64,000 bases of DNA from Candidatus Poribacteria bacterium (GCA_963663765.2 CAXXUA010000006.1:64001-128000); one strand, 5' to 3'. Shown: positions 14,030-61,143, counted from the stretch's first letter. Numbers and translations: made by a program. The notes: generated by a model from the letters alone, not told the origin.

Positions 14030-14441
14030 ATATTGCTAATATTAACCATATTCTTCAGTCCCGTAGGGACGATATGTTTATAGAAATACATATCCCCACG
14101 TCTTTTTAGTCCCGACAAATGCCATACGGGGAATGCCTTAATGGCATTCATACCCGGGGAATGCCAAAAGGCATTCATACCGTTGATTTCTTGATTTGGC
14201 GCATTTGGCGTTGATTTGGTAGGGACGATATGTTTATCCTTCTATGTCGTTCCTACGGAACTAAAGAGAGGGGATGTGATAACGTCTTTCTATAAACATA
14301 TCGTCCCTACGGGACTAAAGACCGATGTTCAGGTTTCAATAATCTAAAATTGATGTATAAGGTGCAGTTAGGAAACTGCATTTGGGTATTAACTTTCAGT
14401 AAATCAAAATAACAGAAAACTTTTAAAACTGAATAACCCTG
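14030..14441. mobile_element. Partial ISAs1-derived MITE, reverse orientation
   Basis: Same interior as 7592 copy; only one TIR (AAAACTGAATAACCCTG); left boundary approximate. Confidence 0.75.
14115..14219 (+). repeat. Hairpin micro-insertion (34 bp) with a second one (14129-14199) nested inside
   Basis: Interrupts GTCCCG^TAGGGAC; both end TTGATTTGG. Confidence 0.8.
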
Positions 14442-14459
14442 ACCAAAACGGAACTTTCT

Positions 14460-14560
14460 TTGCTCCAGCGGAGCAATATGTTTATAGTCACATTGTCAGC
14501 CCGCATCACCGCTCCAGCGGAGCGGTATGTTAGAGCCGCACATAACACTCCGCTGGAGCA
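14460..14560. repeat. REP-like cluster GCTCCAGCGGAGC
   Basis: Two direct and one inverted copy; followed by ATATGTT/GTATGTT like the GTCCCGTAGGGAC family. Confidence 0.7.
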
Positions 14561-15000
14561 CATCATTTTCTCCAGTTTCACAAATGGACGAAACTCGGAG
14601 AAAAATAGACGTTCTGTTGAATAATCAACTTCTACAAGATGAAAATTGTCCAAACTACCTTGTTTTTGTCCAATGAATGTGGAAAACCATACCAACTATG
14701 AGCACACACAAACCCATACCCACATTGAGAAAATAATACCTCAAAAGGTAGCACAGAACTTGAACGAACCTTTCAAAGAAAAAGGAAACAAAAACTACGA
14801 TTTTTATCGCTTTTTCCGATACCAAAGATGCCTTGAAAATGTTGGTACCCAGTCATAATGTGGGTTTCAAAGGTAGGGTATCGTGATTTGAGACCTTTCG
14901 ATCCCTTTTGAAATCAGATAGGGACTGGGATTGATAACCTCTCATTGATCAACTGGATCCCGACATGTTTGGACGAAAACAAGGAAACTATAGTAGACGT

Positions 15001-15242
15001 TATGATAATTAAAAATACTTCAACGAAAACCTGAAGTTATTTTTATTTATGTAATTCTAACAATATCACAGAGCAATGGTAAATCAACACTATAGACTCA
15101 TTCAACTGAAGCACTCAAAAATGGCGAAGGTATTGTTATTTATTAATCTTCATACGAGACTAAAGACATGGACAAGATGGCATCACATAAAATTAACGGC
15201 AAAGCAATAAATCATCAAAAATACCAAAAACTAAATAACCCG
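15001..15242. mobile_element. Right-hand remnant of ISAs1-derived MITE with ATGAAG-type insert
   Basis: Matches 21631-21809 architecture; ends AAAACTAAATAACCCG. Confidence 0.65.
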
Positions 15243-15291
15243 TGTGGATGGTGCGTTAAGTTCTTTGGATTAATCGTTGCAATTCAAAATC

Positions 15292-15942
15292 TCAGATTAG
15301 TTCCCGGATTTTATCACGAAAATAACAGAAACTTGGTGACTTGTTATTATTGATGTCCATATATGGTGTAATATTTCTTGCCCACTCTGATTTTTCCTTA
15401 CCGATTATAAACCAAGGCTCATTTTCAAGCACATTTGACCCTCCAGGATATATTGCATCAGCCAGATTTTCCCACGTATTGCAAATGGAGTCATTTTGAT
15501 AACTATTCAGGATGTTGGTTTTCGCTTTTGGATAAGCTTTCTTGATTGCGGTGAGATCACCAAGAAACCATGCTTCACCTTCTTCAATAGCAATGCAAAA
15601 TCGAGTTTTTGGTTTATGATTACATGCATTTAGGACAGAATTAAGTTCTTGTCGAAATGTTTTTAAGCACTTTCTATCTAAATCACAAACTACTATTAAA
15701 ACAGCTGGAAAGTTGTGAGGGTAATTGGAAAATGTTTTACCGTATCCATTGAGCAAGTTTGGAAGGCGGTCAAGTAAGATGCGTTTACTCGCGTCAGTGT
15801 GCCCTTGTAGATCTTTAGGAATGTGACCGATTCCTCGGTAACTATGGATTTTGTATGTATGTTGGTTGCCAATAATCTTTCGCATCAGAACTTTAAGTGT
15901 CTTTTCACCAGATTGATCTTCAACCAATATTTCAAAATGCAC
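15292..15942 (-). CDS. DUF4276 (TOPRIM-like) protein
   Basis: ILVED, VVCDLD, IEEGEAWFLGD, SPSF motifs; follows AAA ATPase. Confidence 0.75.
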   Translation of the reverse strand: MHFEILVEDQSGEKTLKVLMRKIIGNQHTYKIHSYRGIGHIPKDLQGHTDASKRILLDRLPNLLNGYGKTFSNYPHNFPAVLIVVCDLDRKCLKTFRQELNSVLNACNHKPKTRFCIAIEEGEAWFLGDLTAIKKAYPKAKTNILNSYQNDSICNTWENLADAIYPGGSNVLENEPWFIIGKEKSEWARNITPYMDINNNKSPSFCYFRDKIRELI

Positions 15943-15945
15943 TTA

Positions 15946-17316
15946 TCACCTCGGGTCAAGATAATCGCTGTACCAGAGTCCACCCAAGGGTAATCCTTCT
16001 TCCACAAGATTGTTTACAAGCGGATCTTCGCTTGCTCGGTGGATTTTGGAAAAACCGTCTTCACCCTTTTCCAAAATCCAAACCTCTTTTGGGTCCAATG
16101 CATCAATGAAGTATGGTTGATGCGTCGTAACAAAAACTTGCGAGCCACCTTTGCGTCCCGTTGCATGTGCTCGGAATTCAGTGGCGAGAATCTCCAAAAG
16201 TTTGTGATATAGGTAGTTTTCCGGTTCTTCAATGCAGAGAAAAGGTGGTGACGTTGGTGCTTCCAGCATTAGGAGATAGGCAAACAATTTTAGTGTTCCA
16301 TCGGACATCTGCTGTGCGTAAAATGGGTCTTGAAAACCTTTTTCGTTGAATCTAAGTAACAACTTATTGTCTTCTGTCTTTTTAGTGTCAATTTTTTCTA
16401 TACCTGGAATTTTTTCTGCGATTTTTTTTAGAATTACTTGGAAACGTCGAGGGTGTTCGCCCTCCATAAATTGAGCAAAGTTTCTTAGGTTATTACCTTG
16501 TTTATTGAGATATTCTTGCGGACCAGCAAATTGTAAGTTACGTGCTGCATCTGGAGAGAAGTAACTAAGAAACCATCCTTCAATGAAACGGCGGAAGGCA
16601 GAAATTCTCGGATGCTGTTTTAAGGCACCGAGCGTAGCAATACCAAGTTTTCGAGGATTATCCAATTCAATAGTCTCTGTTTCACTTGACTCCTCTGCTT
16701 TTATAGATTCAAGAGCAGCTTGTAGATCTAGGTTGAATTGAATGGCTAAATCTTCATTGTCTTTTTCAATCTGGAATCCTTCTTGAACATCAGTTTCTTT
16801 GGACACTTCTGATCCAATGGATTTAATTAGTTCTTTCAGGTCGTTAAATTGGTACCCGTCTTGATTACCTTTCCATACCACGCCACTTCCATTAATAAGA
16901 TCTAAAAAAGAGAAAGGTTGGCCGTATTTCTGATTCTTTCGTCTCTGTCTGAGTCTTTCATAGCGAACATAAGGACGTCCTACACTGTCAGGTGCAATAG
17001 CAATTTTGTATGTAATAGGTCTTGCATTTCCATGTTCTCTATAATATACATCAAATTCAATAGGACCTATTGCACCTTGTGACCGAATTCTCTCAAACCC
17101 CCCGCGCTCATCACATGCTGCCTCAACATCAAATTTTAGGGCATCTGCTAGGAAACCAAACGCATCAAATAGTGTAGTCTTACCAACTCCATTTTTTCCA
17201 ATTATTGTTGTTATGGGAGTGAGTGCTTCTGTTTTTTTTTGGCCCTGTAGCCGCCCTAGTGTTACATCATTGAGGACTCCATAGTTTCTTACTCTAAAAC
17301 CTTCTAATATTGCCAT
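15946..17316 (-). CDS. AAA_21 / ABC-type ATPase
   Basis: GKNGVGKT, MSDGT, CIEEPEN, TTHQP. Confidence 0.9.
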   Translation of the reverse strand: MAILEGFRVRNYGVLNDVTLGRLQGQKKTEALTPITTIIGKNGVGKTTLFDAFGFLADALKFDVEAACDERGGFERIRSQGAIGPIEFDVYYREHGNARPITYKIAIAPDSVGRPYVRYERLRQRRKNQKYGQPFSFLDLINGSGVVWKGNQDGYQFNDLKELIKSIGSEVSKETDVQEGFQIEKDNEDLAIQFNLDLQAALESIKAEESSETETIELDNPRKLGIATLGALKQHPRISAFRRFIEGWFLSYFSPDAARNLQFAGPQEYLNKQGNNLRNFAQFMEGEHPRRFQVILKKIAEKIPGIEKIDTKKTEDNKLLLRFNEKGFQDPFYAQQMSDGTLKLFAYLLMLEAPTSPPFLCIEEPENYLYHKLLEILATEFRAHATGRKGGSQVFVTTHQPYFIDALDPKEVWILEKGEDGFSKIHRASEDPLVNNLVEEGLPLGGLWYSDYLDPR

Positions 17317-17357
17317 TTGATAATCTTCCTTGAGTGAGTTCCTAATGTAAGTATGAA

Positions 17358-17690
17358 CTATCTCGGATTACACGGGGTGTGGTTAGCAGCAAGAAGATCT
17401 ACCTCCTTCTTTAAACGGGAACTAGCATCATCGTCTTGATGAACACATATACAATTTACTCCATTCCTTAGTGCACAAGGCCACTTCTCGTGATATGGGA
17501 TTCTTTCCTCCAGTGAATTTGTTTGACCGATATATATAAACGTGTGTGTTCCCCTTCCATCGGATCCAACTACACGCTTTGAGAATATGTAAACTGCTCC
17601 AACATCGATGAAAACTGTGTCCGTGGTATAAACCCCAAAATTGTAAGTACCTGTCTTACCTTGAAAGGTTGCATCAGCTATTTTTCCCAT
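17358..17690 (-). CDS. Small GIY-YIG-like protein
   Basis: GAVYIF...IYIGQT..L.ERI..H...E motif order. Confidence 0.6.
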   Translation of the reverse strand: MGKIADATFQGKTGTYNFGVYTTDTVFIDVGAVYIFSKRVVGSDGRGTHTFIYIGQTNSLEERIPYHEKWPCALRNGVNCICVHQDDDASSRLKKEVDLLAANHTPCNPR

Positions 17691-17908
17691 ATTGTTGTCC
17701 TATATCAAAACTTTTTAGAAAATTAAATATTCAGATTATCGGTGATATAAAGGATTCTTGTGAACATTGTGACAATATTGGACATTATACCACTTCAAGT
17801 CACTTTTGAAAACTAAAATTGTTCATTTTGTAGCACATGCAGGTGAACGAATTTCTAATACGAAAAATAAAGGTTTTAAGTGTTTAATTCTCAACAATCG
17901 GTATCGGT

Positions 17909-20900
17909 CTAATCATCTGCGGGGACGGCAGCACCTAATAGTTCTTCATCAGAAACGGGGCGGAAACGTGCTTCTGGGTCTTTGAGGAAAAATGCCCGAA
18001 GGTCAGTGATGATTGCATATAATGCAGGCATGACAAACAACGTCATCAACGTTGCAAATGCAAGTCCGAAGATAATGGTATATGCCATCGGCATCCAGAT
18101 CGGAGATTTTCCACCTAATCCAAGTGCCATTGGGATAAGTCCGATAATTGTCGTCATTGATGTCAATATAATTGGACGCAAGCGGATACTCCCCCCTTTC
18201 AGAATAGCATACCATCGGTTGTGTCCTCGTTCTCTGAATTTGTTGATAAAGTCTATCATTACAATAGAATCATTAACGACGATTCCTGCGAGTGCGACTA
18301 TACCAAACATTGCAATCATGCTGAGCGTTGCATTAGAAATCAGCAATCCAACCATCGCCCCTATCATACCGAAGGGTACCGCAAAGAGAATGATTATGGG
18401 TTGCGTAAATGACTTGAATTGTGCACCTAATATCATATAGATAACCAGGATTCCGACAATGAAGAGTTTCTGTAGGTCTGCGAATGATTCCCGGATTTCA
18501 TCAAAAACACCTCTAAAATCCAACCGATATCCTGGGTATAACGATTCTATATTTGCAAACGACGTCATCAATGCTTCGGTCACTGCAAATGGAGTGGTTT
18601 TATCTCTATCAACGGTGGCATAAACAGAAATTGCACGTTCACCTTCAAACCGTCGGATATCCGAATAACCTTTTTCTTCAACGATATGCGCAACATCCTT
18701 AAGAGGCACTGTTGTCCCCATAGGAGTTGTAATCAGCATATCCTTTATTTGTTCAATTGTCTGTAAGCGATTTTCATCATATTTGACGATGACATCAATT
18801 GCGTCATCCGCTTCACGATATGTTGTAGCTTTTGCGCCTTCAATTGCTGTCCGAACAGTCTGTGCAACTTGTAGCGTTGACATACCGAAATATGCAGCTT
18901 TTTCAGATTTCAAATAGATGCGTAATTCTGATTTACCTATACGAAAATCGTCCCGAATGTCTTCGACACCATCAATCTCACCAAGTGTTCCCTTAAGTCT
19001 TTCAGCAATTTCTACCAATTGTTCAAATTTATCACCTTTGACTTTCACTTCAACATCCTGTCCTTGGGGTGGTCCTCCTTGCAGTTTGACAAAGTTTAGT
19101 TTTTCGATTCCACTGATGTTAGTAGTTTTTTCCCTTAAAGAAGCAATGACTTCATCAGTATTTCGTTTACGTTCACTCTTGGGTACAAGTTCTACGATAA
19201 GTTCTGCATAATTTGAGCCGTAAGTGATTCCCTCAAGAAGTCCAGAAGTAGGTGTATGCAGTCCGATATTTGTGACTATTGCATCGACCTCATCTTCAGG
19301 CAGTTGACCTGCTGCTTCCTCAACTTTGGCAATTGCCTCCGTTGTTTGTTGTATCCCATAAGATGGTGGCATTTCGGCTTTGACGTAGAATTGCGGAAAA
19401 TCTTCTCCCGGAAAGAGTTCTTTGTCAAGAAGTATGAACCCACTAGCACACACAATCAAACCGATAAAAAGCACACTACTTACAAAGATATATCGTTTTC
19501 GTATCGTAATTTTGAGAATTCTGACATATCGGTTCCGGATAAAATCAAAGATTGTCAGAAACCATGCAAAAAACCCAATGACGCGGATACTCGCAGTAAA
19601 AGCACCACGTGACCGAGTTCGCAGGTTTTCAAGTCTACTACGTCCAGTCCGTGTTCTGGCTTTACCCCATTCAGATACGTGTGCTGGCAAAATAACAAAG
19701 ACTTCAAAGAGAGAAGCGACCAAGACAATGATAGCCATTATCGGTACAATCCGCATAAACTGACCAGAAACACCGGACATAAACATCAAGGGACCAAAAG
19801 CACCAATAGTTGTCAAACTTGCAGCAACAACGGGCCAACCGACCTCTTCGGCACCACGAATAGCAGCAACTTTTGGAGATGCGCCTGCCTCAATATGACG
19901 ATATGTGTTCTCTATAACAACAATTGCATCGTCAACAACAATTCCAACAACCAAGATGAGACCAAACAGTGCCACGCCGCTTAGCGAGTAACCAGCAATT
20001 GACATGAACCAAAAAGTCGCCATAAATGCGACAGGAATACCAAGTGCTGCAAAGAGCGCATTTCGCCAGCCAATAAATAGGAACAGCATCAGTATAACAA
20101 GAATAAGTCCGAAAATAGCATTTGTTTCAAGAATACCCAACCTTTCTTTTAATATAACAGAATAATCATTGACTGGTGTTAGTACTGCACCCTCGGGTAA
20201 ATCGTTTTGCTTTTCTTTAACTAAATCACGTAGTTTTGCGACTAATGTGATTGTGTTCCCCTCACTTTTTTTCTGGACGCTCAGACTAATGGAGGGTTGT
20301 CCACTGATTCGAGAAAGCGTGCGTGCTTCCTCATAGGTAGAGGAAACTTTTGCAACATCGCGCAGACGAATCGGTGTTCCAGAAGGTTGTACTGCAATAA
20401 TCGTGTCCCCAATAATTTCCGTGTTTGAAAATTCGCCCATTGTGCGCACCATAAATTCGGAGTTGCCAATTTCCATGGTGCCTGCAGGTATATTTAAATT
20501 GCCAACTTGTAATGCTGTTGAGACTCTTTCAATCGGTAGGTTATATGCCTTTAAACGGTCTGGATCTACTTCAATCCATATCTCACGTTCACGTAATCCA
20601 GCAATTTGCACGGATGCAATATTCTTGATTTCTAATATCTCATCCCTAAGATCCTCAGCGATTTCTCGCATCTGTAACTCTGTAATGCTTCCTCCAACAA
20701 CGATAGTTAACATTGGAAAACCGGACGCTATGTCCAATTCAAGTACTGCTGGATCGTCTAAAATCTCCTCTGGTAAGTCATTAACTTGTTCAACAGCAGT
20801 TCTTAGATTCTCCATCTCCTTATCGAATTCACGATCACTCATCTCATCAAAATCAATAGTAATAATTGATCTTTCTTCTGAGGATGTAGAAAGCATTAAG

Positions 20901-21175
20901 TTTATTTTATTAACATTTTCTTCAATAGAATCCTCAATAGTTGCAGTAACGAGTTTTTCTACCTCTTCGGGAGATGCTCCCGGATACAAGGTTGTTACGG
21001 TCGCTGATTGGAGTGCAATTTCTGGTGTGAGTTCACGTGGTAGGTTTATCCATGCATACAACCCAAAAATGATGATAAGAATCATCAACATATTGGCAAA
21101 TACCGGGTTGTTCACAGACATTCTTGGAATGGACATGTTGGGAAATATTCTCCTTGATGTTATACTAGTGTTCAA
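17909..21175 (-). CDS. RND (AcrB/AcrD/AcrF family) transporter
   Basis: GIVVDDAIVVIEN, GIVVNDSIV, RLRPIILT; true start probably MSIPR. Confidence 0.93.
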   Translation of the reverse strand: MNTSITSRRIFPNMSIPRMSVNNPVFANMLMILIIIFGLYAWINLPRELTPEIALQSATVTTLYPGASPEEVEKLVTATIEDSIEENVNKINLMLSTSSEERSIITIDFDEMSDREFDKEMENLRTAVEQVNDLPEEILDDPAVLELDIASGFPMLTIVVGGSITELQMREIAEDLRDEILEIKNIASVQIAGLREREIWIEVDPDRLKAYNLPIERVSTALQVGNLNIPAGTMEIGNSEFMVRTMGEFSNTEIIGDTIIAVQPSGTPIRLRDVAKVSSTYEEARTLSRISGQPSISLSVQKKSEGNTITLVAKLRDLVKEKQNDLPEGAVLTPVNDYSVILKERLGILETNAIFGLILVILMLFLFIGWRNALFAALGIPVAFMATFWFMSIAGYSLSGVALFGLILVVGIVVDDAIVVIENTYRHIEAGASPKVAAIRGAEEVGWPVVAASLTTIGAFGPLMFMSGVSGQFMRIVPIMAIIVLVASLFEVFVILPAHVSEWGKARTRTGRSRLENLRTRSRGAFTASIRVIGFFAWFLTIFDFIRNRYVRILKITIRKRYIFVSSVLFIGLIVCASGFILLDKELFPGEDFPQFYVKAEMPPSYGIQQTTEAIAKVEEAAGQLPEDEVDAIVTNIGLHTPTSGLLEGITYGSNYAELIVELVPKSERKRNTDEVIASLREKTTNISGIEKLNFVKLQGGPPQGQDVEVKVKGDKFEQLVEIAERLKGTLGEIDGVEDIRDDFRIGKSELRIYLKSEKAAYFGMSTLQVAQTVRTAIEGAKATTYREADDAIDVIVKYDENRLQTIEQIKDMLITTPMGTTVPLKDVAHIVEEKGYSDIRRFEGERAISVYATVDRDKTTPFAVTEALMTSFANIESLYPGYRLDFRGVFDEIRESFADLQKLFIVGILVIYMILGAQFKSFTQPIIILFAVPFGMIGAMVGLLISNATLSMIAMFGIVALAGIVVNDSIVMIDFINKFRERGHNRWYAILKGGSIRLRPIILTSMTTIIGLIPMALGLGGKSPIWMPMAYTIIFGLAFATLMTLFVMPALYAIITDLRAFFLKDPEARFRPVSDEELLGAAVPADD

Positions 21176-21217
21176 GCATGTGTTTTCAAAATCATTTCAG
21201 TAATTGATTATCAATAC

Positions 21218-21339
21218 CAGGACTTACGCACCTAACGGTAGACGCGCTTTGTAAGCGCGCTGGAAACCGAAAAAATGCTGAAAATTACACCATTTTCGTC
21301 ATAATTCTTCATCAAATCATGAAAACTGCGTAAGTCCTG
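21218..21339. mobile_element. 122-bp IS701-derived MITE
   Basis: TIR CAGGACTTACGCA / TGCGTAAGTCCTG as in IS701 at 51683; 5-bp TSD AATAC. Confidence 0.9.
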
Positions 21340-21413
21340 AATACGTAACTAAATATTGTATCATATTAAGTGAATAACTGACAAGAAACATTAATCATAA
21401 ATCATAGAGTGTG

Positions 21414-21809
21414 CAGGGTTATTTAGTTTTAAGAGTTTTCTGTTATTGAGATTTACTGAAAGTTAATATCCAGTTTCGGTTTCCTAACCGAACTTTATGC
21501 ATCAGTTTTAGATTATTGAAACATGAACATCGCTCTATAGTCCCGTAGGGACGATATGTTTATTCTTCTATGTCGTGCATTCGGAACTAAAGTGGGGTGG
21601 AAAACATTTTCTATAAACATATCGTCCCTAATGAAGATTAAAAAATACTTTGTGTAATTCTACTAATCCGCCTACAATCTGAAAAATATTTATTACCCGA
21701 TTAATAAATTAATCTTCATACGGGACTAAAGAACTAGACAAGATGGTATCCCATAAAATTAACGACATAGCAAAATAATACCAAAAATATTGAAAACTAA
21801 ATAACCCTG
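21414..21809. mobile_element. ISAs1-derived MITE with nested ~90-bp ATGAAGATTAA...TTAATCTTCAT element (21631-21720)
   Basis: ISAs1 TIRs; 9-bp TSD TAGAGTGTG. Confidence 0.9.
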
Positions 21810-21893
21810 TAGAGTGTGTTTTCTTGTTGATGTAACTATCGTAAGTATGGTACAATTGCCATATCTTAAACACTTGGAGAGAAACCGATCCCT

Positions 21894-22682
21894 ATGCTAC
21901 CCTTTAAGCTTGTTGAAGTAGATGAACCAATTTTGCATCTTCACATAGGAGATGTTGAGGTAGAGACTGAATTCTTTGTCAGTGAATTTGTTGGCACAAA
22001 CTCCCATCAAGAGGTTCTTGATTATCCTGGTTTGGATCGGATGGTTTTGCGCCGTGTACGGGAAGCAGCGTATAGAGCATTTACAGTATTTTTGAAAGAA
22101 TTTTCCGAACCCGCGCCATTTCTTCCCGTAGAACAGCTATCACAATATCCGAACTATCGTTTTTCTTTATTGGTGTCTGTCCCACGTTGGTACGAACTGC
22201 ATGAGATATTTCTAAATGCTCCCGACTCGCATAGGTTAGAACATGGTAATATGGTTTTTGAATATAACGGTTATGAAATTGAATTAAGAGCAAAGCACTT
22301 TATTACTGATACCTCAGCATTCTTAGTCTCATCAGAGAAATATACACTTTTTATCCGAAGTATTCAAGATACTGAAATCACCCGCTATAAGCGGAGTCAA
22401 TTCACCGATCTATCCGAATATACCCCTCCATCCTTTCATATAAATGCACAAGAGTTAAGTGAAACTATACTACATAACTTAGTAAACCGAGATAGTGCTT
22501 TATCCATAGAGCAACTGTTGATGTTTCCATCGTTAGACGACACAGAATCAGAATCGGATGAAAACCTTACTTGCTGCCCAGAATGTAAAGGTGAAGTTAG
22601 ACGTATAGACAAAAACTATTTTTGTTTGGAATGTGATTGGGATGATCTTCCAATATTAAAACGTTTTGCAAAAAGTAAATAA
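21894..22682 (+). CDS. Hypothetical protein with C-terminal zinc ribbon
   Basis: CPECKG...CLECDW; GGAG upstream. Confidence 0.7.
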   Translation: MLPFKLVEVDEPILHLHIGDVEVETEFFVSEFVGTNSHQEVLDYPGLDRMVLRRVREAAYRAFTVFLKEFSEPAPFLPVEQLSQYPNYRFSLLVSVPRWYELHEIFLNAPDSHRLEHGNMVFEYNGYEIELRAKHFITDTSAFLVSSEKYTLFIRSIQDTEITRYKRSQFTDLSEYTPPSFHINAQELSETILHNLVNRDSALSIEQLLMFPSLDDTESESDENLTCCPECKGEVRRIDKNYFCLECDWDDLPILKRFAKSK

Positions 22683-22711
22683 CTGCATTGGTTGCGTACC
22701 CAGTTTTATCA

Positions 22712-24342: not shown

Positions 24343-24480
24343 CTATGAATACCTCACATTTAGGATGAATTACATAATGAAAAATTCTATTCGTTTTTTC
24401 ATGACCAAAACCAATAATAAGCGTTCATTATGTAAAGTATAATCTATTCTCATCTTGGTGTCAAGAAAACTCACTGGGAG

Positions 24481-50611: not shown

Positions 50612-50745
50612 GACGCACTTGCCAATTTAGGGAAGTGTCATTCAAACAAATCTTTATTCCAATCAGTATGGGCAGTACACACGTAATACGAAATGGAATT
50701 AGATGTGAACCGCACCAACTGGTTGGATAATAGGGGTGCATACTA

Positions 50746-51648: not shown

Positions 51649-51682
51649 ATTCGTCTCCTAAAAAGAAAGATAGTATTATCTT

Positions 51683-52773: not shown

Positions 52774-52776
52774 ATC

Positions 52777-53406
52777 TTATTCATCTAATAAATCCTGTAG
52801 CACGATTGCAGTTCTATTTGCAGCATCAATCTGTAGTGCTTTTTCTATCTCTTGCATTGCTTTCTGGTTTTCACCGAGATAGAAGTAACACGATGCTTTG
52901 AGTGCGAATAATTCGGCATTCGTATAATAATCATGTCGGTATAGGTATTTTGTATCTGCGTTCAGACCGTTATCGATTGCTTTTATCGCATCCCCAAAGT
53001 CCGAAGTATCCTTGTATCTCAAATATAACGTATTAGCAAGGCCTATCCAAGCATCAGCATTCGTAGAATCATAACGCACGGCATTTTGGAATGCATCCAG
53101 TGCTAAAGAAACTGTCAATGAAAGACTCAGATGACTCCATCCAACCCCATTGTGTGCATCAGCATGTTCAGGATCCGAGTTTAATGCGCGCTCAAAATTT
53201 AGCAGTGCTTGTGTAAAATCACCCGAGTTATAAGCAATCCATCCTTGCTGTGTATGAGTGATTGCAGTAGCAGAAACAGTCTCAGAATCGCTTGAACAGC
53301 TAAGTATTAAAACAGATAAAATGAGAAACAATATGAATGGATGTCTAAGATTATGGTATTTCATGGCTTCATGTGTTGAATAGGTTGAATTTCTGAACAT
53401 TCTCAT
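52777..53406 (-). CDS. TPR lipoprotein
   Basis: Lipobox ILSC; TPR units. Confidence 0.8.
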   Translation of the reverse strand: MRMFRNSTYSTHEAMKYHNLRHPFILFLILSVLILSCSSDSETVSATAITHTQQGWIAYNSGDFTQALLNFERALNSDPEHADAHNGVGWSHLSLSLTVSLALDAFQNAVRYDSTNADAWIGLANTLYLRYKDTSDFGDAIKAIDNGLNADTKYLYRHDYYTNAELFALKASCYFYLGENQKAMQEIEKALQIDAANRTAIVLQDLLDE

Positions 53407-53415
53407 ATTGATTTC

Positions 53416-56400
53416 TTATTCCGATTTTAGCGTTGCCAGTAGTGGACTTCTAAGTGCTAAAGTGACTGCAAATGCATTTGCAATTATACCAAAAACGAAG
53501 ATGAATAACAAGGTAATCGAGAGCGAATACCAAGGTAATGAGTTAAGATTTCCTTTTAAGCTGAGAATACCTACTAACCCCGCAAAAACTCCAATGAACA
53601 TACCCGCAGCAAGAAGAAAGAAACTCTCCAAGAACAACATACGTAAGAGTAATTGTCTTCTGAAACCAAACGCACGGAGTGTCGCTAATTCCCCACGACG
53701 TTCAATGATATTTCTCAAAAGAACAAGTGCTAATCCGAATGTACCAAGTAGAACACCCAAGCCTCCAAGACTTTGGAAAGTAGAAATATATGTGTTTTCA
53801 ACCGCACGAAAACTTGCCAGACGGTCTACTGCTAATGTAACATCAAAACCGTAATCACTTAGTGTTTTCTCAAGTATGCTTGATGTGCTTTCTTGATATC
53901 CATCAGTAGTTTTGATCAGGAAATATTGATACCCACTTTGACTTGGAAAATACTTTTTAAAATTATCTTCTGATATAATCAGTTGGCTTTGAAATAGGCT
54001 ATTATTTACTGTATCAAGAAGTAGATGTAAAGGTTTACCTGATTCATCTTGAATCGCATAAGATTCTTCTGGATCATGATGTAAAATCCAACGAAGAGAA
54101 TTTTCATCACCAATTGCCCGGATTATATCTTCTTCCAATTCATTTTCATCTGCAATGTTTAACCACAACATTTCATCTGACATCGTATCTGGCGCTCCTA
54201 TGATCTGGGGTTTTTCTGGTTTATATAAATTGAGACAACTGACATCTTCCCCCGGTAGTACTCTAAATGGATATACAGTTGATTCAGACAATATTACTTC
54301 ATCGTTTTCATCAAAACCGAGTTCTGACCTGCCATCTGGTGAATTCATGTTTTGATGTATAGGTAATGACGATTCTGCGACAAATGTATATTCAGTTTGA
54401 GGAACGCCATCATGCCGATTTGCCCCAACTGCCACGATGATACAACAAGCTAAACTTATAGTCATTACACAAGTATTACTCCTTGACGGTTGTCGTGCAG
54501 CGTTTTTTAATGACAACTTTACTCTGGTCAACTTCTCGTTTGCTTTTTGGGTATTTATCCATTTTGAAAATATCAACAGACCCATAGCCAATATGACAGA
54601 AGTTAACATAAAGAATATAAATAAAGGATTTGTATACAATTCCGCTAACTTAACTGATAGAGTCTTACCTAAAGGGAAGTAAGAAATAGGTAATCCGACT
54701 ATAATGCCAATACATAGAAATATCATTGCTTTATTTACATTTAAAGTGAGTCTATATTCAGATAGTTTTTTAAAAAAATATAGTAATAAATAAATTGCAG
54801 AAATTCCAAATAACACAAAAACAATATTTACAATTTTGCTAATATAGTCTTCTTCAAATAACATATCGCTAAATATAAGACTACAAATTAATCCAGTAAG
54901 AAATAGGTATATGAAGAAAAACCTATTTACCTTGGTAGAAGTCTTATCATTCTTTATCAATAGATCTGTCTTCTCAAAGTCAGTTTTACCAGCCAATAAC
55001 GATACGGTGGACGTTTTACCTAATTTACGAACAGTCATTATAATGGAAAATATAACTACAAGCAGAGAAATAAGCGCACCAAAAACTAAACTCCAACCAC
55101 TTACATGAAGATTCATAAACGGTGTACCGATAGCAGGTAACCACCATGTCTTCAAACCATAGATCATCAATTGTCCGTAACCTATTGCCAGAATGCAACC
55201 GAATAGACTACCAATACCAGCAATGATGATACCTTCTATAAGAAATCGGTGGCGAATTTTTACAAGCGTATAGCCGATAGCCTGCAAAATACCAATTTCA
55301 CGCGACCTTTGTTCAACACCGATTCTGAACAACATACCAACTAACAATGCAACAGCAATAATGATAAACCCACTCAAACTACCGAATAACATACCGAAAT
55401 CAGTGGAACCTGTCGACGCGTTGAGTCCATCTGCTTTCGGCGATAGGAAACGAAATCCTATCTGTTCGGGTTTGATCTTCTTGAGAAACTCAGTTTCAAA
55501 AAGGTTGCGAGTGTTTTGAAGATTGTTATCCGTCGCAGCATCCATGCGGATTGTAGTGAGATCGCCAAATCTGTTCTGCCAAAGTTCTTTTCCAATTTCT
55601 AAGGAAATATACGCTTTCGGTGTTGCTTTGTATTGTTCCCAATAATCATCGTCTTTACTTCGGATTATGGAGTAATCAAACGGAAAAGGTGGCTCCCAAT
55701 CTGCAATAGTAGCAGTGTCGTGGATACCGGGAAAAGTTGGAATAATGTTCCTGTCTGCCCAGAAACCTTCTATTGGAACAATACCTCCGAGAACAAAGGT
55801 GGCATTTTCTGTTTCGTATTCTTCATCTGCACTGACACTGAAATATGATATATAGATTTTATCACCAATTTGTGCACCTAAGTCTTCGGCTGCCCAAGTA
55901 TTGAGAATGATTTTTGGCAGGTTACCCAACCGTTCTTCTTTATTGGTACTATTGTTGACATCTGAAAACACACTGTCCTCAATAGGTATCGCCAACATTG
56001 TGGAGTACGGTATGGTGTTGGTAGAATTTTCGTTATTGTCTTCCACTTGAGATGCTAATGAAATAGTATTGGCAAGATAGGTCAAGGTTGGGAGTGCTGG
56101 AATATCGTTCGCTTGGGCAACGGACAACGCAGACTCGGACAACACAGGTTCAACCAAGTATTGATCACTTTGTAGATCAAAATAGTTTTCATACGCATTG
56201 ATCTTCAATCCAAGTGTCTCAAGAGTGATTGTTAGTGAATCGGATGTAATTGGATTAATATCAGTTGAAAAAACAGCATTGACTTTATTCAACTGACCAA
56301 GTTCATTTTGTATTATAGGTAGTGATACGTAGGCATTTAAGGGGAGACTCTGGTGTGGTTGCAGACTAAATCTACCAGCATTTTCAGTCGGAATGATGTC

Positions 56401-56946
56401 GCTAACGATTAGTCTTATGCGTTGAATAACATCCGTCGCATCCCGATTACCAAGTAGAAACTCAGGATGGATATCAGCAGTTTCCTGAAAACTAACAAAG
56501 ATCGCATCTCCGACATTTACATTCAATTCCTTTTGTAGAGTCTGGTTGATAACAACATCAGCGAAAGGTTGATCTGATGATTGATTCCAATTAGGTATAT
56601 CTCCATTATCCCAAAGTTCAAAGAAGGAATTCTCTACACCGCAAATGTTGACTGTTGAAGCACGGTTTTCTGTTTGTGGTACAACAACTGAACCGTTGGT
56701 AAGAATTGCTGAAACTTTGTTCTCATGACTGATTATCTCTGGTGAAAAAAAACGATCAGATATGATCGCATGTTCAATGTTACCAAGACGTTCCAGTGTA
56801 ATATCTTGCAAACTGCCCCGCATTGAATCCCCTACAATCAATGCACCAGCAAGCACACCAGTTGCAACGGCAGTACAAAGCGCAACGGTAAGGTGAATTT
56901 GCCAGAAATGTTTTGCAGATGACCATAGTGTCCGCATAATTGTCAA
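53416..56946 (-). CDS. FtsX/MacB-like ABC transporter permease
   Basis: EQRSREIGILQAIG and ERRGELATLRAFG repeats. Confidence 0.88.
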   Translation of the reverse strand: MTIMRTLWSSAKHFWQIHLTVALCTAVATGVLAGALIVGDSMRGSLQDITLERLGNIEHAIISDRFFSPEIISHENKVSAILTNGSVVVPQTENRASTVNICGVENSFFELWDNGDIPNWNQSSDQPFADVVINQTLQKELNVNVGDAIFVSFQETADIHPEFLLGNRDATDVIQRIRLIVSDIIPTENAGRFSLQPHQSLPLNAYVSLPIIQNELGQLNKVNAVFSTDINPITSDSLTITLETLGLKINAYENYFDLQSDQYLVEPVLSESALSVAQANDIPALPTLTYLANTISLASQVEDNNENSTNTIPYSTMLAIPIEDSVFSDVNNSTNKEERLGNLPKIILNTWAAEDLGAQIGDKIYISYFSVSADEEYETENATFVLGGIVPIEGFWADRNIIPTFPGIHDTATIADWEPPFPFDYSIIRSKDDDYWEQYKATPKAYISLEIGKELWQNRFGDLTTIRMDAATDNNLQNTRNLFETEFLKKIKPEQIGFRFLSPKADGLNASTGSTDFGMLFGSLSGFIIIAVALLVGMLFRIGVEQRSREIGILQAIGYTLVKIRHRFLIEGIIIAGIGSLFGCILAIGYGQLMIYGLKTWWLPAIGTPFMNLHVSGWSLVFGALISLLVVIFSIIMTVRKLGKTSTVSLLAGKTDFEKTDLLIKNDKTSTKVNRFFFIYLFLTGLICSLIFSDMLFEEDYISKIVNIVFVLFGISAIYLLLYFFKKLSEYRLTLNVNKAMIFLCIGIIVGLPISYFPLGKTLSVKLAELYTNPLFIFFMLTSVILAMGLLIFSKWINTQKANEKLTRVKLSLKNAARQPSRSNTCVMTISLACCIIVAVGANRHDGVPQTEYTFVAESSLPIHQNMNSPDGRSELGFDENDEVILSESTVYPFRVLPGEDVSCLNLYKPEKPQIIGAPDTMSDEMLWLNIADENELEEDIIRAIGDENSLRWILHHDPEESYAIQDESGKPLHLLLDTVNNSLFQSQLIISEDNFKKYFPSQSGYQYFLIKTTDGYQESTSSILEKTLSDYGFDVTLAVDRLASFRAVENTYISTFQSLGGLGVLLGTFGLALVLLRNIIERRGELATLRAFGFRRQLLLRMLFLESFFLLAAGMFIGVFAGLVGILSLKGNLNSLPWYSLSITLLFIFVFGIIANAFAVTLALRSPLLATLKSE

Positions 56947-56968
56947 AATCCGATCTCAATCTCTTTCT

Positions 56969-57670
56969 TTAACTCTGGTTTTCGTTAGCATTGACAATAC
57001 TACAAACGCCATCAGAAAGTCTTAGATGGTTATCAAAACGGGAAGCTAAATCAAGATTGTGGGTCACAACTATTAAGATATTTTCTTCTGTATTGTGTAT
57101 CTCAAAGAGTAAATCTACAATATTACCAGCAGTCGTCGAATCTAAATTTCCAGTTGGTTCGTCACAGAGAAGAATACTGGGTTTGTTGATAAGCGCGCGA
57201 GCAATCGCAACTCGTTGACGTTCTCCACCTGAGAGTTCGGCAGGACGGTGTGATATTCTATCCTTCAAACCTACCCGATCAAGCAGTTCATGTGCTTGAT
57301 CTTTATGGTCCGGTTTCTGTTTGAATGCAAGAGTAGGAATGAGTACATTTTCAATTACAGAGTATTGTGGAAGAAGGTGGTGATCTTGAAAGACAAAACC
57401 GATTGCTGAGTTGCGGTACTGTGCAAGTTCTGGTTCGGTGAGTGTAAATGGATTTATTCCGTTAATATCCACATGTCCATCTGTAGGTTTCTCTAAAGTT
57501 CCAATGATGTGTAGAAGTGTACTTTTGCCAGAACCAGATGGACCCGTAACTGCAATTGCAGTACCATCCGAAAAACTAAAAGATATATCTCGTAAGACTT
57601 GAATAGTTCCGAAGTCCTTGGTAAGTTGTGATACTTTTAGTGAATGCGGATTATTTTCAAATTCATTCAT
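56969..57670 (-). CDS. ABC transporter ATP-binding protein (LolD/MacB-like)
   Basis: GPSGSGKS, LSGGE, DEPTGNLD. Confidence 0.93.
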   Translation of the reverse strand: MNEFENNPHSLKVSQLTKDFGTIQVLRDISFSFSDGTAIAVTGPSGSGKSTLLHIIGTLEKPTDGHVDINGINPFTLTEPELAQYRNSAIGFVFQDHHLLPQYSVIENVLIPTLAFKQKPDHKDQAHELLDRVGLKDRISHRPAELSGGERQRVAIARALINKPSILLCDEPTGNLDSTTAGNIVDLLFEIHNTEENILIVVTHNLDLASRFDNHLRLSDGVCSIVNANENQS

Positions 57671-58080
57671 TCTGTTACTATCTGAGATACGATAAAGTCA
57701 GGTATTGGAATTGAGCGTATTTTTTCACCTGGGTTTGTAATGCAGCAGACTGTTGTGAGCTGTCCGCGTGCAACATCAATTTCATTGTGCATGAATTGAA
57801 ATTGATAGGTTAGTGATTTTGTGCCCTTCTTAGAAATCCACAACAGAATATCTACTTCATCCTCAAAACGTAGTGGACTAAGATATTCACATGAAGCGGT
57901 AACACGGGGCCACCCAATCTTATTACCATCCCATTCAGTAACTACACTCGTTCCAAGGCTACGAAGGAATTCGTGTTCAACCGTTTCCATAAAGACAAAA
58001 AACCTTGTGAAATGGACAATCCCCGCCATATCCGTATCCACAAACTCAATTTTACGTTTAGTTCGGAACTCAGTTCGCAT
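57667..58080 (-). CDS. Acyl-CoA thioesterase (4HBT family)
   Basis: DTDMAGIVHF. Confidence 0.9.
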   Translation of the reverse strand: MRTEFRTKRKIEFVDTDMAGIVHFTRFFVFMETVEHEFLRSLGTSVVTEWDGNKIGWPRVTASCEYLSPLRFEDEVDILLWISKKGTKSLTYQFQFMHNEIDVARGQLTTVCCITNPGEKIRSIPIPDFIVSQIVTE

Positions 58081-58098
58081 AATTTCAGTGTTAATCAG

Positions 58099-59520
58099 TT
58101 AGTTTTTTGGATATTCTGGTACTTCCTCGTAACGACTCCAAGTTTCTGAATATATTCTCCAATATCCATCTGCAGGATCAATCATTAAGTTCAACTTCTT
58201 TGTTCCATAGTCTGAATACGCAGGACGACTTCCGGACGCGGGTGTGCCTTTGAATTTTTGCATGAAACTCACATCCGCGACTGCATTATCTCCATTAATA
58301 ACGAGATTAGAAATCACAACCTGAATATCAGCATAATGAACATTCAACTTTTTCATTTTCTGTTTCAGTTGATCTTTGCGCAAGAAGGTAGATGTTTCAG
58401 TTCCATTTCTCACAGTAACTCGTGTGATTAATGCTCTGTCTGCATAAATTGACATGTAAGTATCTATGTCCTTGTCTTCCCATGCTTTTTGCCATTTTCC
58501 CAAAATTTGACTGACTTTGAGTTGTGTATCAAGAGGTGCATTTCCATCAAAGATATTTGAAACCGACTCTTCAGGAATTATCTCCTCTGGCAACTGGTCT
58601 GATTGAGAAATAGGTTCATCAGAAATATAATCTCCTCCAACTACATCATTGATGAGTTTCCATTTTCTAACAAAAAAACCTTTCTTTTCAATAGTTAGTG
58701 TGCGTGTGTGGGTTTCAATGTAAGTACCAGCACTACTGATTGAAACACTGATATTATTCACCACATGTCGCGTTTTGGAATATGTTACCGGAGTATATGA
58801 AGCTTCACTTAGGTCAACAACTAAGTCTTGAGATAATTGTAGCAAAGCTAACTGGTAATTACTGTTATGTTTTTTTCTTGCAGATTTGTCCCAAAGCGAT
58901 TCATACTTTTTCTTATTTTGGGATTCAAGGATTTCTTTCCATTCCAATACAACATCTGCGACAGGACTATCTACAGTCGTATCGGGATCGGTCAACGAAT
59001 CTTCTGCAAATGTTGTTAGGTCTGAAGAAATATCTTCACTGACAACTTCATCTCTGATGAGTTTCCAACGCTGTTGTATCAGTCCAGTTTTTGCAATAAT
59101 AAGTGATCTTGACTGTACTAAAGGTTCTCCTGGCGCATTTATTAAGATGGGGATATTCTCAATTCGCAAATAATGTGGGTCCTGAGGATCCTTACGAGTT
59201 CTTTTTTCAGCCAGTCTTATATCAACATCAATTTGCATGTCTTGAATAAAAAGCTGCGCGGTATCTTGATAACCGGAATTAGTCTTATTACTTGCATTTT
59301 TACCCCAGAGTAAATCATATTTTTTTATATCGCCTGATTCAAGTGCACTTTTCCATTTCACTAAAAACGCTACAGGTGTTTCACTTGACCTTGAGAACCA
59401 TATAATACCAACAATAAGGATAACAATAACACTAACTATTGCACCCCATTTCAGATTGTCTGATAAAGAAAAGGAACTTTTTGAGTCATTAATTGCAGTG
59501 TTTTGAAAGTCATTCATCAA
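58099..59520 (-). CDS. Membrane-anchored protein with three NTF2-like repeats
   Basis: One TM; three W..A.E..D...Y...W/Y ... WK(L/I) units. Confidence 0.65.
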   Translation of the reverse strand: MMNDFQNTAINDSKSSFSLSDNLKWGAIVSVIVILIVGIIWFSRSSETPVAFLVKWKSALESGDIKKYDLLWGKNASNKTNSGYQDTAQLFIQDMQIDVDIRLAEKRTRKDPQDPHYLRIENIPILINAPGEPLVQSRSLIIAKTGLIQQRWKLIRDEVVSEDISSDLTTFAEDSLTDPDTTVDSPVADVVLEWKEILESQNKKKYESLWDKSARKKHNSNYQLALLQLSQDLVVDLSEASYTPVTYSKTRHVVNNISVSISSAGTYIETHTRTLTIEKKGFFVRKWKLINDVVGGDYISDEPISQSDQLPEEIIPEESVSNIFDGNAPLDTQLKVSQILGKWQKAWEDKDIDTYMSIYADRALITRVTVRNGTETSTFLRKDQLKQKMKKLNVHYADIQVVISNLVINGDNAVADVSFMQKFKGTPASGSRPAYSDYGTKKLNLMIDPADGYWRIYSETWSRYEEVPEYPKN

Positions 59521-59529
59521 CCCTTCTCC

Positions 59530-60879
59530 TTATAATTTCGGTATATTTTCGTATATTTGCCAAGTTTCACGGTATATTTTCCAAGTACCTTGAATTTGAT
59601 GCATCCAAACTTCGCGAATCCAGATATTATATAATGCAGTATCATCCTCTGTTTCTGCTGGAGGTGAAACCAACCGACTCAAACGATAGATACCGATGAC
59701 ACTCTCTTGCTCAACCTCAAAAGATTTGTCAGACGTTGACCATCCTTGAGCATTCATCTCACGTAGTTTGGTTTCAACTTTCGTTTTATCAAGTGAAGTT
59801 TTATGTTCTTTGCTCTCTTTTATTATAATCTGATTTAATTCTGACGTCGCTGTATAGAGTGCAAAGTGTCCTTTAAGATTCTTGCTATTCCATGCCTTGT
59901 GCCAATTCGTGAGTGCGGCTTTACCCGCATTTATTTGTTGGGTGGAAAGCGATGTGCGTCCTGTTCTTTTCGGTTTGTCATTTTCAAGTTGACGGACATA
60001 AGCACGGGCTTTCTCTTCCTGTTTGCGGATAAATTCTGCGTGGTCAGCTGCAACGTTACGTTTCTTGGCTTCTGCAAGCATGTCGGTATATATTTTTGCT
60101 TGTTCACGTAGCTGTTTTTTCAGAGATTCTGTTTCAGCAATAGCAGCGCGTTTTTGGCGACTTTCTGTTTTCGCCATCGCTTCTGCTGCATCAATTTTCT
60201 TTGAAAAATTCTTTATTTGCGTTCCAAAATTAATGACTTCAGTTTCAGATCGAGAGGCTTGTGCTTGAATAGATTTTAATGTTTCCTTAAGTTCCGCAAT
60301 CTTTTGTTCATGAACTTTCTTAGTATTACCTATTTCTTTTTTCTCAGTTTCAAGCGTCTGTATATTCTGTTTTAGTTGTTGTTCAGTCTCACTAAATTGC
60401 TGCAGTTTCGTATCTAAATCAGTTAGTTTCTTTTCACTTGATTTAAGTTGTTTTTGCAGTTCTGTGATGAGCGCATCCTTTCCAATAATATTTGCATTAT
60501 GTTCAGCATTCATCTTGTTTTGTTCCGCTTTTCTCCGAGCAATTTCTGCTTTTGTAATAGCGCGGTTGGCAAAATTGATAACGTCAAATCCGTTCTTGTT
60601 TTTTAATTCATCTTTCGCCTTTTCAAGATAAGTTTCTGCTTCTTCAAAATCCTCAAACGCAAGGGATGCTGCACCTGCATCTCGTGCTGACTGAATAGTC
60701 ATCTCAGCTTGCAAAATCAGACTATCAACATCTTTGGACTCAATATTACCGAGTTTAGTACCACATGCTGTCAGAAAAATCGGCAATATAAGTACTAAAA
60801 CAACGAATATATGATATAAGAGACAATTTAATTGAGTTTTCTTGTTACTTTTCCCATTGATGTGTATTCCCTTCATCAC
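59530..60879 (-). CDS. Lipoprotein: DUF4398-like helix, long coiled coil, NTF2-like C-terminus
   Basis: Lipobox LTAC; AE..I..AR.AGA...A; WHKAWNSKN...WKIYRE. Confidence 0.65.
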   Translation of the reverse strand: MMKGIHINGKSNKKTQLNCLLYHIFVVLVLILPIFLTACGTKLGNIESKDVDSLILQAEMTIQSARDAGAASLAFEDFEEAETYLEKAKDELKNKNGFDVINFANRAITKAEIARRKAEQNKMNAEHNANIIGKDALITELQKQLKSSEKKLTDLDTKLQQFSETEQQLKQNIQTLETEKKEIGNTKKVHEQKIAELKETLKSIQAQASRSETEVINFGTQIKNFSKKIDAAEAMAKTESRQKRAAIAETESLKKQLREQAKIYTDMLAEAKKRNVAADHAEFIRKQEEKARAYVRQLENDKPKRTGRTSLSTQQINAGKAALTNWHKAWNSKNLKGHFALYTATSELNQIIIKESKEHKTSLDKTKVETKLREMNAQGWSTSDKSFEVEQESVIGIYRLSRLVSPPAETEDDTALYNIWIREVWMHQIQGTWKIYRETWQIYENIPKL

Positions 60880-60933
60880 TTTGACTCCTTCAAAATAATT
60901 TTACTTTTTAATAGAATAAACGTGTTTAACGAT

Positions 60934-61143
60934 CATGACTTACGCAAAAACTGTAGGCGGTGAATGTCTAAATGGCATACATACCCGGTGAATGCCTAAA
61001 TGGCATTCATACCGTTGATTTCTTGATTTCTTGATTTCTTGATTTGGTGCTTTGTAAGCGCGCTGGAAACCCAAAAAAACGCTGATAATTGCATTATTTT
61101 CATCATAATTCTTGATTAAATCAATAAAACTGCATAAGTCCTG
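60934..61143. mobile_element. IS701-derived MITE with 88-bp micro-insertion (60960-61047)
   Basis: TSD ACGAT; 210-88 = 122 bp. Confidence 0.88.

Follow-up and report, generated by a model that had tools for sequence, protein, structure and literature searches.

The window analysed here is a stretch of 64,000 nt from Candidatus Poribacteria, a sponge symbiont (CAXXUA010000006.1:64001-128000), whose genome assembly, 97.8% complete and with approximately 41% GC, amounts to 6.35 Mb spread over 15 contigs. A protein of the window matches metagenome-assembled genomes of Candidatus Poribacteria at 50–84% identity, and a cyanobacterial origin, suggested at first by the likeness to the Nostoc repeats discussed below, was rejected on this ground. 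Seven very small hairpin inserts, which together with their copies elsewhere we refer to as element X, are found in this window, mostly within other repeats. The host repeats are a repetitive extragenic palindrome (REP), designated REP1, and two types of MITE (miniature inverted-repeat transposable element). MITE1 is a 122-bp element with 13-bp inverted ends and a complete REP1 inside, present in approximately 280 genome copies (566 two-strand matches). The end repeat of MITE2, (A)GTCCCGTAGGGAC..., contains GTAG and occurs in the window at 7874-8025, 14057-14316, 21539 and 24606-24738. The original prediction, made from the window alone, had listed the seven inserts as one mobile family; all are present, and one copy is decayed (Table 1).

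Element X is 36–90 bp in size, with a stem of 7 bp and a loop of 4–5 nt, and occurs in two forms. Form A is an array of 27–28-nt units, GGGGAATGCC-loop(4–5)-GGCATTCATACC, linked by one C and followed by a tail of the type GTTGATTT(CTTGATTT)n, an octamer repeat, often with a final GG. Form B is one hairpin, (G)ACAAATGCC-ATACGC-GCATTTGGC or its CGAATGC/GCATTCG variant, with the tail GTTGATTTGG. The stem change between CAAATGC/GCATTTG and CGAATGC/GCATTCG, to which the prediction had drawn attention, is real. Compared with shuffled sequences, five of the six non-decayed stretches in the window fold with z-scores of -2.8 to -4.0; the B copy at 24698 has a z-score of -1.94, and 8 of 200 shuffles fold equally well. 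No Rfam family matches anywhere in the window.

Table 1. Inserts of element X and host repeats in the window.
Feature	Coordinates	Strand	Description
B-type element	14115..14219	+	stem CAAATGC/GCATTTG, tail GCGTTGATTTGG; at GTCCCG^TAGGGAC, end repeat of MITE2/REPIN-like element
Nested A array	14128/9..14199	+	two units (loops TTAAT, AAAAG), 18-nt tail GTTGATTTCTTGATTTGG; at CCATAC^G in the B-hairpin loop of the 14115 element
B-type element	24698..24731	-	stem CGAATGC/GCATTCG; lies within the other end repeat of its MITE2 host
Decayed A copy	46072..46106	-	adjoins GTAATCC-type short repeats; hairpin no longer stable (z +0.96)
A array	48610/1..48682	+	two units and 18-nt tail; REP1 5' arm inside MITE1, GGTAGGC^GTGCTTTGT
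A array	48695/6..48739	+	one unit and 18-nt tail; 3' arm of the REP1 carrying the 48610 array, TTGGC^GCGCTGGAA
A array	60959/60..61047	+	two units, the first diverged (GGTGAATGTC..GGCATAC); four-repeat 34-nt tail; REP1 5' arm, second MITE1
Host MITE1	48584..48820	+	ends CAGGACTTACGCA / TGCGTAGGTCCTG, internal REP1; 121 bp minus two inserts
Host MITE1	60934..61143	+	122 bp minus insert
Empty MITE1	21218..21339	+	122 bp, comparison copy
Empty MITE1	34546..34667	+	122 bp, comparison copy
Host MITE2/REPIN-like	14108..14316	+	inverted end repeats AGTCCCGTAGGGACGATATG
Host MITE2/REPIN-like	24606..24738	+	contains the B element at 24698

Removing the inserts from the two filled MITE1 copies leaves elements of the same length as the empty copies, as had been claimed, but the figure of 121–122 bp does not extend to the second MITE type, which is restored to approximately 99–104 bp. 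The absence of a target duplication is borne out, with a single G ambiguous at the junction. The MITE2 copies at 24606 and 14108 have equal internal orientation, and their B elements are oriented alike relative to the end repeats. Contigs from four public runs end at repeats (e.g. 48612, 61009, 61049), and their joints across inserts have sides of only 20–36 nt, which could derive from paralogues. Another highly repeated element lies at 49700-49970 of the window; in the four public runs its summed contig depth is very high and variant letters are numerous.

The genome-wide search suggested by the prediction, carried out with two substitutions permitted per arm, recovers 518 arrays in the genome of the window (labelled G000 below; other G numbers denote relatives). 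One unit makes up 416 of these arrays, two units 88, three units 10 and four to seven units 4. The unit pattern has 412 matches in the genome and its backwards control has none across the 41 genomes searched; the occurrence of X is far beyond chance. Among the tails, GTTGATTTGG (212), GTTGATTTCTTGATTTGG (75), GTTGATTTCTTGATTT (49) and GTTGATTT (40) are the commonest, and tail lengths run from 8 to 34 nt and longer. The 32 tailless arrays are either followed by a B unit, which supplies the tail, or interrupted or truncated; none of the 32 is a long copy enclosing an open reading frame (ORF), for which the prediction had proposed to look. Further hairpins share the common tail, namely an A/B hybrid (42), a unit with a second internal hairpin (41) and CAGAAGC/GCTTCTG (14). 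On a crude ORF map, 448 of the 518 arrays lie outside stop-to-stop ORFs of at least 110 aa.

To describe the insertion point, each junction context was counted once, giving 21 multi-copy contexts in this genome and 107 distinct contexts from other genomes and metagenomes. The junctions are not random. The base directly 5' of X (position -1) is C in 17/21 contexts here and in 87/107 elsewhere, the four exceptions here being copies preceded by another copy of X. At position +1, following ...GATTT, the base is G in 14/21 and 80/107, respectively, and in the contexts from elsewhere -4 is A or T in 91/107 and -2 is C in 59/107. The prediction that every insert sits at CG^Y is correct insofar as the junctions are mostly CpG; the rule, however, is a C directly 5' of the element, and the empty forms of several hosts have no CpG there. 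CpG alone is not the signal, because the CpG that X itself carries in ATACC^GTTG accounts for one junction at the most, whereas ATACCCGGGG junctions number 110. The CCATAC^GCG site in the B loop is filled in 59 of 173 cases genome-wide and empty in 114, and full elements joined head to tail account for 34 GATTTG-GGGG junctions. The inserts lie in the stems and loops of REPs, in MITE ends and in the loops of their own relatives, and the host DNA is itself hairpin-prone.

Comparing filled and empty host copies reveals that X is gained or lost as a discrete block without target duplication. For 398 of the 518 arrays, the genome contains an empty paralogue across the junction. The sequence CTGCAGGC-G-TGCTTTGT is present in 582 empty and 26 filled copies, and TGCCATAC-G-CGCATTTG in 57 empty and 48 filled ones. 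At six unrelated sites, the filled copy exceeds the empty one by precisely GGGG...GATTTG, placed at a C^G step and ambiguous by one G: the REP1 5' arm GGC^GTGCTT, the REP1/MITE1 3' arm GGC^GCGCTG, the B loop CATAC^GCGCAT, a related loop CACAC^GCGTAT, CTACCC^GACCTA and, for form B, GTCCC^GTAGGGAC. Once inserted, X is carried along when its host repeat multiplies or is duplicated in tandem.

The spread of X is independent of any one host. The flanks fall into 91 clusters with 234, 65, 27, 18, 17, 16, 15 and smaller numbers of members, of which 21 have at least two members and 70 are singletons. The loop subtypes TAAAT and AAAA(G) recur in nearly all host families, and each large host holds several subtypes. 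We built a tree of 209 oriented MITE1 copies of 119–125 nt after insert removal, dropping copies of other lengths or without the internal GTAG (bases 10–30); with approximately 122 columns, it is weakly resolved. On this tree, site 1 (54/209 filled) takes 48 changes, compared with a mean of 47.6 (range 41–52) for shuffled labels. Site 2 (35 filled) takes 22 changes against 32.7 shuffled, and part of its spread is therefore hitch-hiking. Six filled MITE1 copies are 100% identical to an empty copy. REP1, the main host, has just 2–15 copies in five relatives, four of which carry 54–104 near-perfect copies of X, and the fifth (G003) none. Descent from one ancestral composite repeat, which the prediction had named as a refuting outcome, is rejected on the basis of the empty paralogues, the flank clusters, the shared subtypes, the MITE1 tree and the REP1-poor relatives; X is spread across unrelated hosts.

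Orthologous empty sites were sought in the nearest species, which are 87–88% identical in flanking genes but have other repeats in the matching intergenic space. For the single insert whose host hairpin seems to be unique (C5:500154), relatives offer no conserved counterpart. A metagenome contig, L152, compared with G000 C5:708900-710331, matches C5:709590-710331 with 99.3% identity over 742 nt and has wholly different upstream repeats, reflecting either quick turnover of intergenic repeats or a rearrangement break at repeats.

The hairpin itself is maintained through compensatory changes. The stem GAATGCC/GGCATTC occurs 358 times. Covariation was read from the whole-variant list, per-position counts being polluted by register errors; the compensated doubles GAATGCT/AGCATTC (21) and GAATACC/GGTATTC (14) exceed the one-sided intermediates (3, 5, 5 and 7). 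The relatives have GAATGAC/GTCATTC plus many GAATACC/GGTATTC, and B-like stems change both arms together (CAAATGC, CGAATGC, CAGAAGC, AGCATGC). These compensatory changes are a few events, each amplified, and not hundreds of independent ones. The 43-nt element is 100% identical across many species whose flanking genes are 67–88% identical. At the same time, there are lineage-specific subfamilies, and loop-subtype frequencies are species-specific. Among 151 sampled genomes of the phylum searched with a 20-nt junction word, the genus has the word in 36 of its 37 genomes and the sister genus in 24 of 57 (0–57 copies); beyond these two, a single genome of a third genus holds one occurrence and the 19 further genera hold none. 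In metagenomes, X is found in 89 stretches, and the viral contigs give no match. Our findings bear out the idea of a very small non-autonomous hairpin element that spreads independently and makes no duplication. X is probably a real micro-element with its own proliferation, its shape being kept by something that reads the hairpin.

Regions of the genome dense in X are tandem arrays with a period of 36 or 78–82 nt. Local hopping near an enzyme gene was considered for them and rejected, as they are not separate insertions. Spacerless head-to-tail arrays of the complete 36-nt element, of up to approximately 16 and 8 copies, lie at G000 C5:~1377900-1378500 and C6:362458-362760, and at C6:322372-323426 and 327184-327570, REP1 together with its insert is repeated in tandem every 78–82 nt. 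Palindromic forms, with the ATACC flank and the tail on both sides of one hairpin, are seen in relatives (G017 C1:745466-745510 and 2156241-2156285; G013 C30:26778-26806). In G024, a closed chromosome without a Y1 match, approximately 13 listed TTGAT-loop copies all fall within approximately 110 kb (C1:4.35-4.47 Mb), a clustering that points to regional amplification.

The closest analogues of X are the small dispersed repeats (SDRs) of Nostoc, and REPs. A literature search finds nothing on repeats of this kind in Poribacteria, in line with the original view that the family is not a described one; a published analogue does exist, however, in the SDRs. Those of Nostoc punctiforme and its relatives, which Elhai et al. 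are said to have described in 2008, are reportedly 21–27-nt hairpin repeats with compensatory changes, confined to one clade and with no known enzyme. They are also said to sit one inside another as well as within MITEs and short tandem repeats. X resembles SDRs, as these are reportedly defined, in its hairpin unit of 20–30 nt, in being nested in itself and in other repeats, in the lack of a duplication and in its restriction to one clade. It differs in its phylum, in its defined octamer-repeat tail and in its multi-unit arrays, and the likeness considered here is to the SDRs as described. According to PMC4390886, SDR5 is inserted precisely between bases 3 and 4 of the palindrome HIP1, GCG^ATCGC. 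The main site of X, GCG^YGC in a REP palindrome, is similar, and the genome studied here has just 58 HIP1.

REPs, and the systems they form as REP doublets (REPINs) with REP-associated tyrosine transposases (RAYTs), are treated in PMC2817692, PMC3116915 and PMC3733652; Di Nocera et al. describe REPs inserted inside small palindromic targets. X shares with REPs and REPINs the short, extragenic and imperfect palindrome, hundreds of copies, the clade specificity, the lack of a duplication and a presumed mobilisation by single-stranded DNA and HUH enzymes. On the opposite strand, the A unit has GTAT ahead of its stem, which differs from GTAG by one base, and regional orientation is common to X and true REPs. 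In contrast to REPs, X carries no GTAG/CGTC tag: the stem has (C)GGG on its 5' side, GGTAT-GAATGCC on the opposite strand matches three of four tag bases, and a GTAG stands beside X only where a REP1 host supplies it. Unlike REPINs, the arrays of X run head to tail with a tail and are not inverted pairs, apart from rare double-tailed palindromes seen in relatives. X behaves as a parasite of REPs, since four different true REP types in its own genome carry it as an insert.

X is likewise small, non-coding, high-copy and non-autonomous as classical MITEs derived from DDE transposons are, but it is 3–10 times smaller, has no terminal inverted repeats (its ends are GGGGAATG... and ...TTGATTT(GG)) and makes no duplication. 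Bacterial interspersed mosaic elements (BIMEs) are mosaics of REPs with other short motifs (PMC2817692). X forms similar mosaics, and its tail holds ATCAA-type words; in contrast to BIMEs, its filled and empty alleles are clean in hosts unrelated to one another, and across species it persists where its hosts do not.

Our best explanation, held tentatively and at somewhat less than even probability, is that X is a family of minimal non-autonomous hairpin elements that spreads within one Poribacteria family and is moved through single-stranded DNA by an HUH-type reaction. Under this explanation, folded single-stranded DNA would be the moving form, cut and joined in trans by a strand-specific nuclease/ligase, for which a RAYT/IS200-like Y1 HUH enzyme is the most likely class. 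Such an enzyme would recognise the hairpin and cleave or join on the left at the 5' C^G; on the right, the repeats of ...TTGATTT^ in the tail would offer it alternative sites, which we propose as the cause of the variable tails. Head-to-tail arrays may come about through slippage and through insertion of further copies at the C^G restored at the 5' edge of every copy. It is possible, though rather doubtful, that a dedicated and not yet recognised enzyme, conserved across one Poribacteria family, moves the 36-nt hairpin and tail, making X a minimal transposon of a new class and a hyperparasite of REP/RAYT systems and MITEs. If true, the sequence demands of such an enzyme would account for the identity of X between species that are 12–33% apart in flanking genes.

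Several observations weigh against the HUH explanation, beginning with the insertion sites. In three host families, the filled form differs beside the insert from every empty form: the empty forms AATCC-T-GAAAATCC, GCGACC-TCCC-GGTCGC and GTAGG-AG-CGATCTCC correspond to the filled forms AATCC-C[X]GAAAATCC, GCGACC-C[X]GCC-GGTCGC and GTAGG-C[X]CGATCTCC, respectively. A fourth family is filled at C^C by an insert without the last G. The right junction thus varies by 1–2 nt, unlike the prediction of a precise HUH reaction; either rare CpG variants of the hosts are hit, or 1–2 target bases are replaced. Some copies also have chimeric flanks that combine the left side of one host family with the right side of a second, and recombination between copies therefore moves X as well. 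The filled form of REP2 type may be such a chimera of two host families.

The enzyme search gives no partner. As the prediction stated, there is no cognate enzyme in the window, nor is there one beside any copy examined. Its suggestion of an HUH/RAYT/IS200-IS605-type enzyme is not sustained by the Y1 genes that do exist: the genome has six Y1_Tnp matches, and the hairpin of X stands at the ends of none of the six loci. Three of them (L020-L022; G000 C5:687134-690487, C3:286218-289571 and C5:549367-552720) are IS200/IS605-type copies of approximately 1.75 kb, with the end hairpins CCCACTGCC-TAAA-GGCAGGGG and CCCACAAGC-TAAA-GCATGGGG, whose loop and core resemble the A unit. One match is an IS200-type tnpA. 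L024 (G000 C4:620161-623487) is a RAYT (NCBIfam REP_Tyr_transpos, 122 bits, cut-off 80) between long GTAG-tagged REP2 arrays of GTAGGAGGGAACTCCGATTCCCGA type, the upstream array being a 118-bp tandem repeat. L025 (G000 C10:23646-25277) is a frameshifted RAYT cut by the contig end and preceded by an array of REP1 (CTGCAGGCGTGCTTTGTAAGCGCGC), with one filled REP1 approximately 620 bp upstream of the partial gene. In REP/RAYT systems the REP flanks its RAYT, whereas no RAYT is flanked by X; L024 is flanked by REP2 and L025 by REP1.

The relatives give a similar picture. A copy of X lies within 1.5 kb at one of their 29 Y1 loci, and a tail-like motif beside that same Y1 gene was discarded as a lead, since the other 28 loci lack it. 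A Y1 match is found in 36 of 40 genomes of the genus. The four without a match at E <= 0.001 are G024 (one contig, closed), G001 (four contigs), G010 and G042, and yet G024, G001 and G010 have 54, 104 and 60 copies of X within 3 mismatches of the 35-nt consensus, in subfamilies of their own. No Y1 class is common to all element-rich genomes; the IS605 class is present in G003 (0 copies) and absent from G017 (164 copies). Draft genomes may lose RAYTs, given that one sits at a contig end among repeats here, but a closed genome without Y1 speaks against simple Y1 dependence. MITE2 has its own connection to Y1 genes. Its end repeat flanks an IS200/RAYT-like Y1 gene in three relatives (L051 in one of them), for which reason MITE2 looks like a REPIN, and this class of Y1 gene was not found in the genome of the window.

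IS200/IS605 elements lack inverted ends, make no duplication, recognise hairpins, insert 3' of a short fixed sequence and show strand bias. X resembles them in the lack of inverted ends and of a duplication and in its core, TGCC-TAAAT-GGCA, compared with TGCC-TAAA-GGCA in the IS605-type elements of the same genome. As for a fixed target, the C at -1 is near-invariant, with the weaker C at -2 and A/T at -4. X differs from IS200/IS605 in its single hairpin per element (416 of 518 arrays) in place of a two-ended architecture, in being 36 nt long and not hundreds, in a target of about one C (CpG) and in its weak bias. The end hairpins of L020-L022 are moreover distinct from that of X, and the presence of the insertion sequence does not track X.

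Orientation bears on the same comparison. Relative to the local GC skew, X is oriented only 305 to 213, two of six large contigs run against the skew bias, and no switch occurs at dnaA (C5:1.282 Mb). In the closed genome G017, the first 100 of its 164 places show orientation in blocks and not in two replichores. Among 100-kb bins where |skew| > 0.03, the counts are 65/21 and 16/21, and on contig C6 the orientation switches near the cumulative GC-skew minimum. Neighbouring pairs agree in 212 of 350 cases. X matches the regional majority of empty REP1 for A in REP1 (138/171), A in hairpin loops (37/49), A after CCC (53/83) and B in two-way MITE2 ends (52/74), a regional coherence of 64–81%. We read the orientation as a strand-asymmetric process common to X and true REPs and blurred by rearrangements; selection on the orientation of X is possible. 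On the crude ORF map, the direction of neighbouring genes shows no bias (tandem ++ 85/80, tandem -- 71/61).

It is conceivable, but on the unlikely side, that X is mobile by an unrecognised route, either through a dedicated enzyme of a family beyond those searched here or through host replication or repair, with template switching at stalled hairpins, primed by 1–4 nt of likeness between the target (W-Y-C-C^) and the 3' end of the unit (ATACC(C)^). The failure of any Y1 class to track X, and the lack of an IS110 transposase and of a reverse transcriptase (RT) in the genome, are consistent with it. So are the left flanks, which resemble the unit's 3' end (-4 A/T, -3 C/T, -2 C, -1 C; for example CATAC, AATCCC, CGACCC and CTACCC), the variable right junction with 1–2-nt replacements in REP3 loops and AATCC repeats, and the hairpin-prone nature of every target. 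Sloppy repair, however, would not reuse one 36-nt block hundreds of times with a constant 5' edge, nor keep that block 100% identical across species, and the exactly equal insert boundaries at six unrelated CpG sites argue in the same direction.

We consider it unlikely that X is a passive module of mosaic repeats, in the manner of BIMEs, which would have entered a small number of hosts through rare illegitimate events and since then spread only with them, by tandem duplication and by gene conversion or ectopic recombination between copies. Some subtypes are enriched by context, TTAAT making up 40 of 65 B-loop copies and AATA 14 of 18 REP2-type copies. Form B occupies one host site in approximately 125 of 150 copies, so that much of its number may be due to the host; even so, it is found in both end repeats of MITE2 in equal relative orientation. 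The clustering of MITE1 site 2, the tandem arrays that form the hot spots and the chimeric flanks would fit a passive module as well. On the other hand, at least 10 unrelated hosts are filled at one exact point with their empty forms recorded, equal subtypes recur across hosts, and MITE1 site 1 is scattered like shuffled labels. A solitary REP1 offers just approximately 10–20 nt of flank for conversion, X is abundant where REP1 is nearly absent, and every species examined has new host sequences.

Spread through an RNA copy and reverse transcription, with hairpin and octamer tail serving like the 3' end of a short or long interspersed nuclear element (SINE/LINE), is very improbable; such a route has reportedly been proposed for the Nostoc SDRs. 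The order of hairpin and tandem octamer tail of variable length, and the variable junction on the tail side, would suit it. Against it, RVT_1 has no match in this 97.8%-complete genome (control positive in 3 of 14 genomes), X is not co-oriented with neighbouring genes, no Rfam family matches in the window, and it is the 5' edge that is precise and the tail edge that is loose. The Y2_Tnp search has no match either, but its control is silent everywhere. IS110/IS1111-type enzymes, a family known for targeting REPs without leaving a duplication, read approximately 11–14 nt of their target, whereas the targets of X have only about 1–4 bases in common. The IS110-type enzyme that the prediction offered as an alternative, with X as its non-autonomous partner, is thus hardly credible, as none of five DEDD_Tnp_IS110 candidates scored in the genome passed (control positive in 6 of 14 genomes), even though X is inserted into REP hairpins without duplication and ISPpu9, of the IS110 family, is reported inside REPs (PMC12288879).

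If the HUH explanation of X or another form of true mobility holds, a 36-nt hairpin that inserts precisely and repeatedly would be near the lower size limit of mobile elements, and the needs of its enzyme would be limited to one hairpin, one target C and a short tail. The Nostoc SDRs are the only published parallel known to us. The question is tractable here, with approximately 100 related genomes, several closed, whose copy numbers extend from 0 to above 400, with clean filled and empty alleles and with candidate Y1 enzymes. X breaks short-read assemblies. In the biology of these bacteria, X disrupts REP stems and MITE ends, and may thereby limit the spread of REPs and MITEs.

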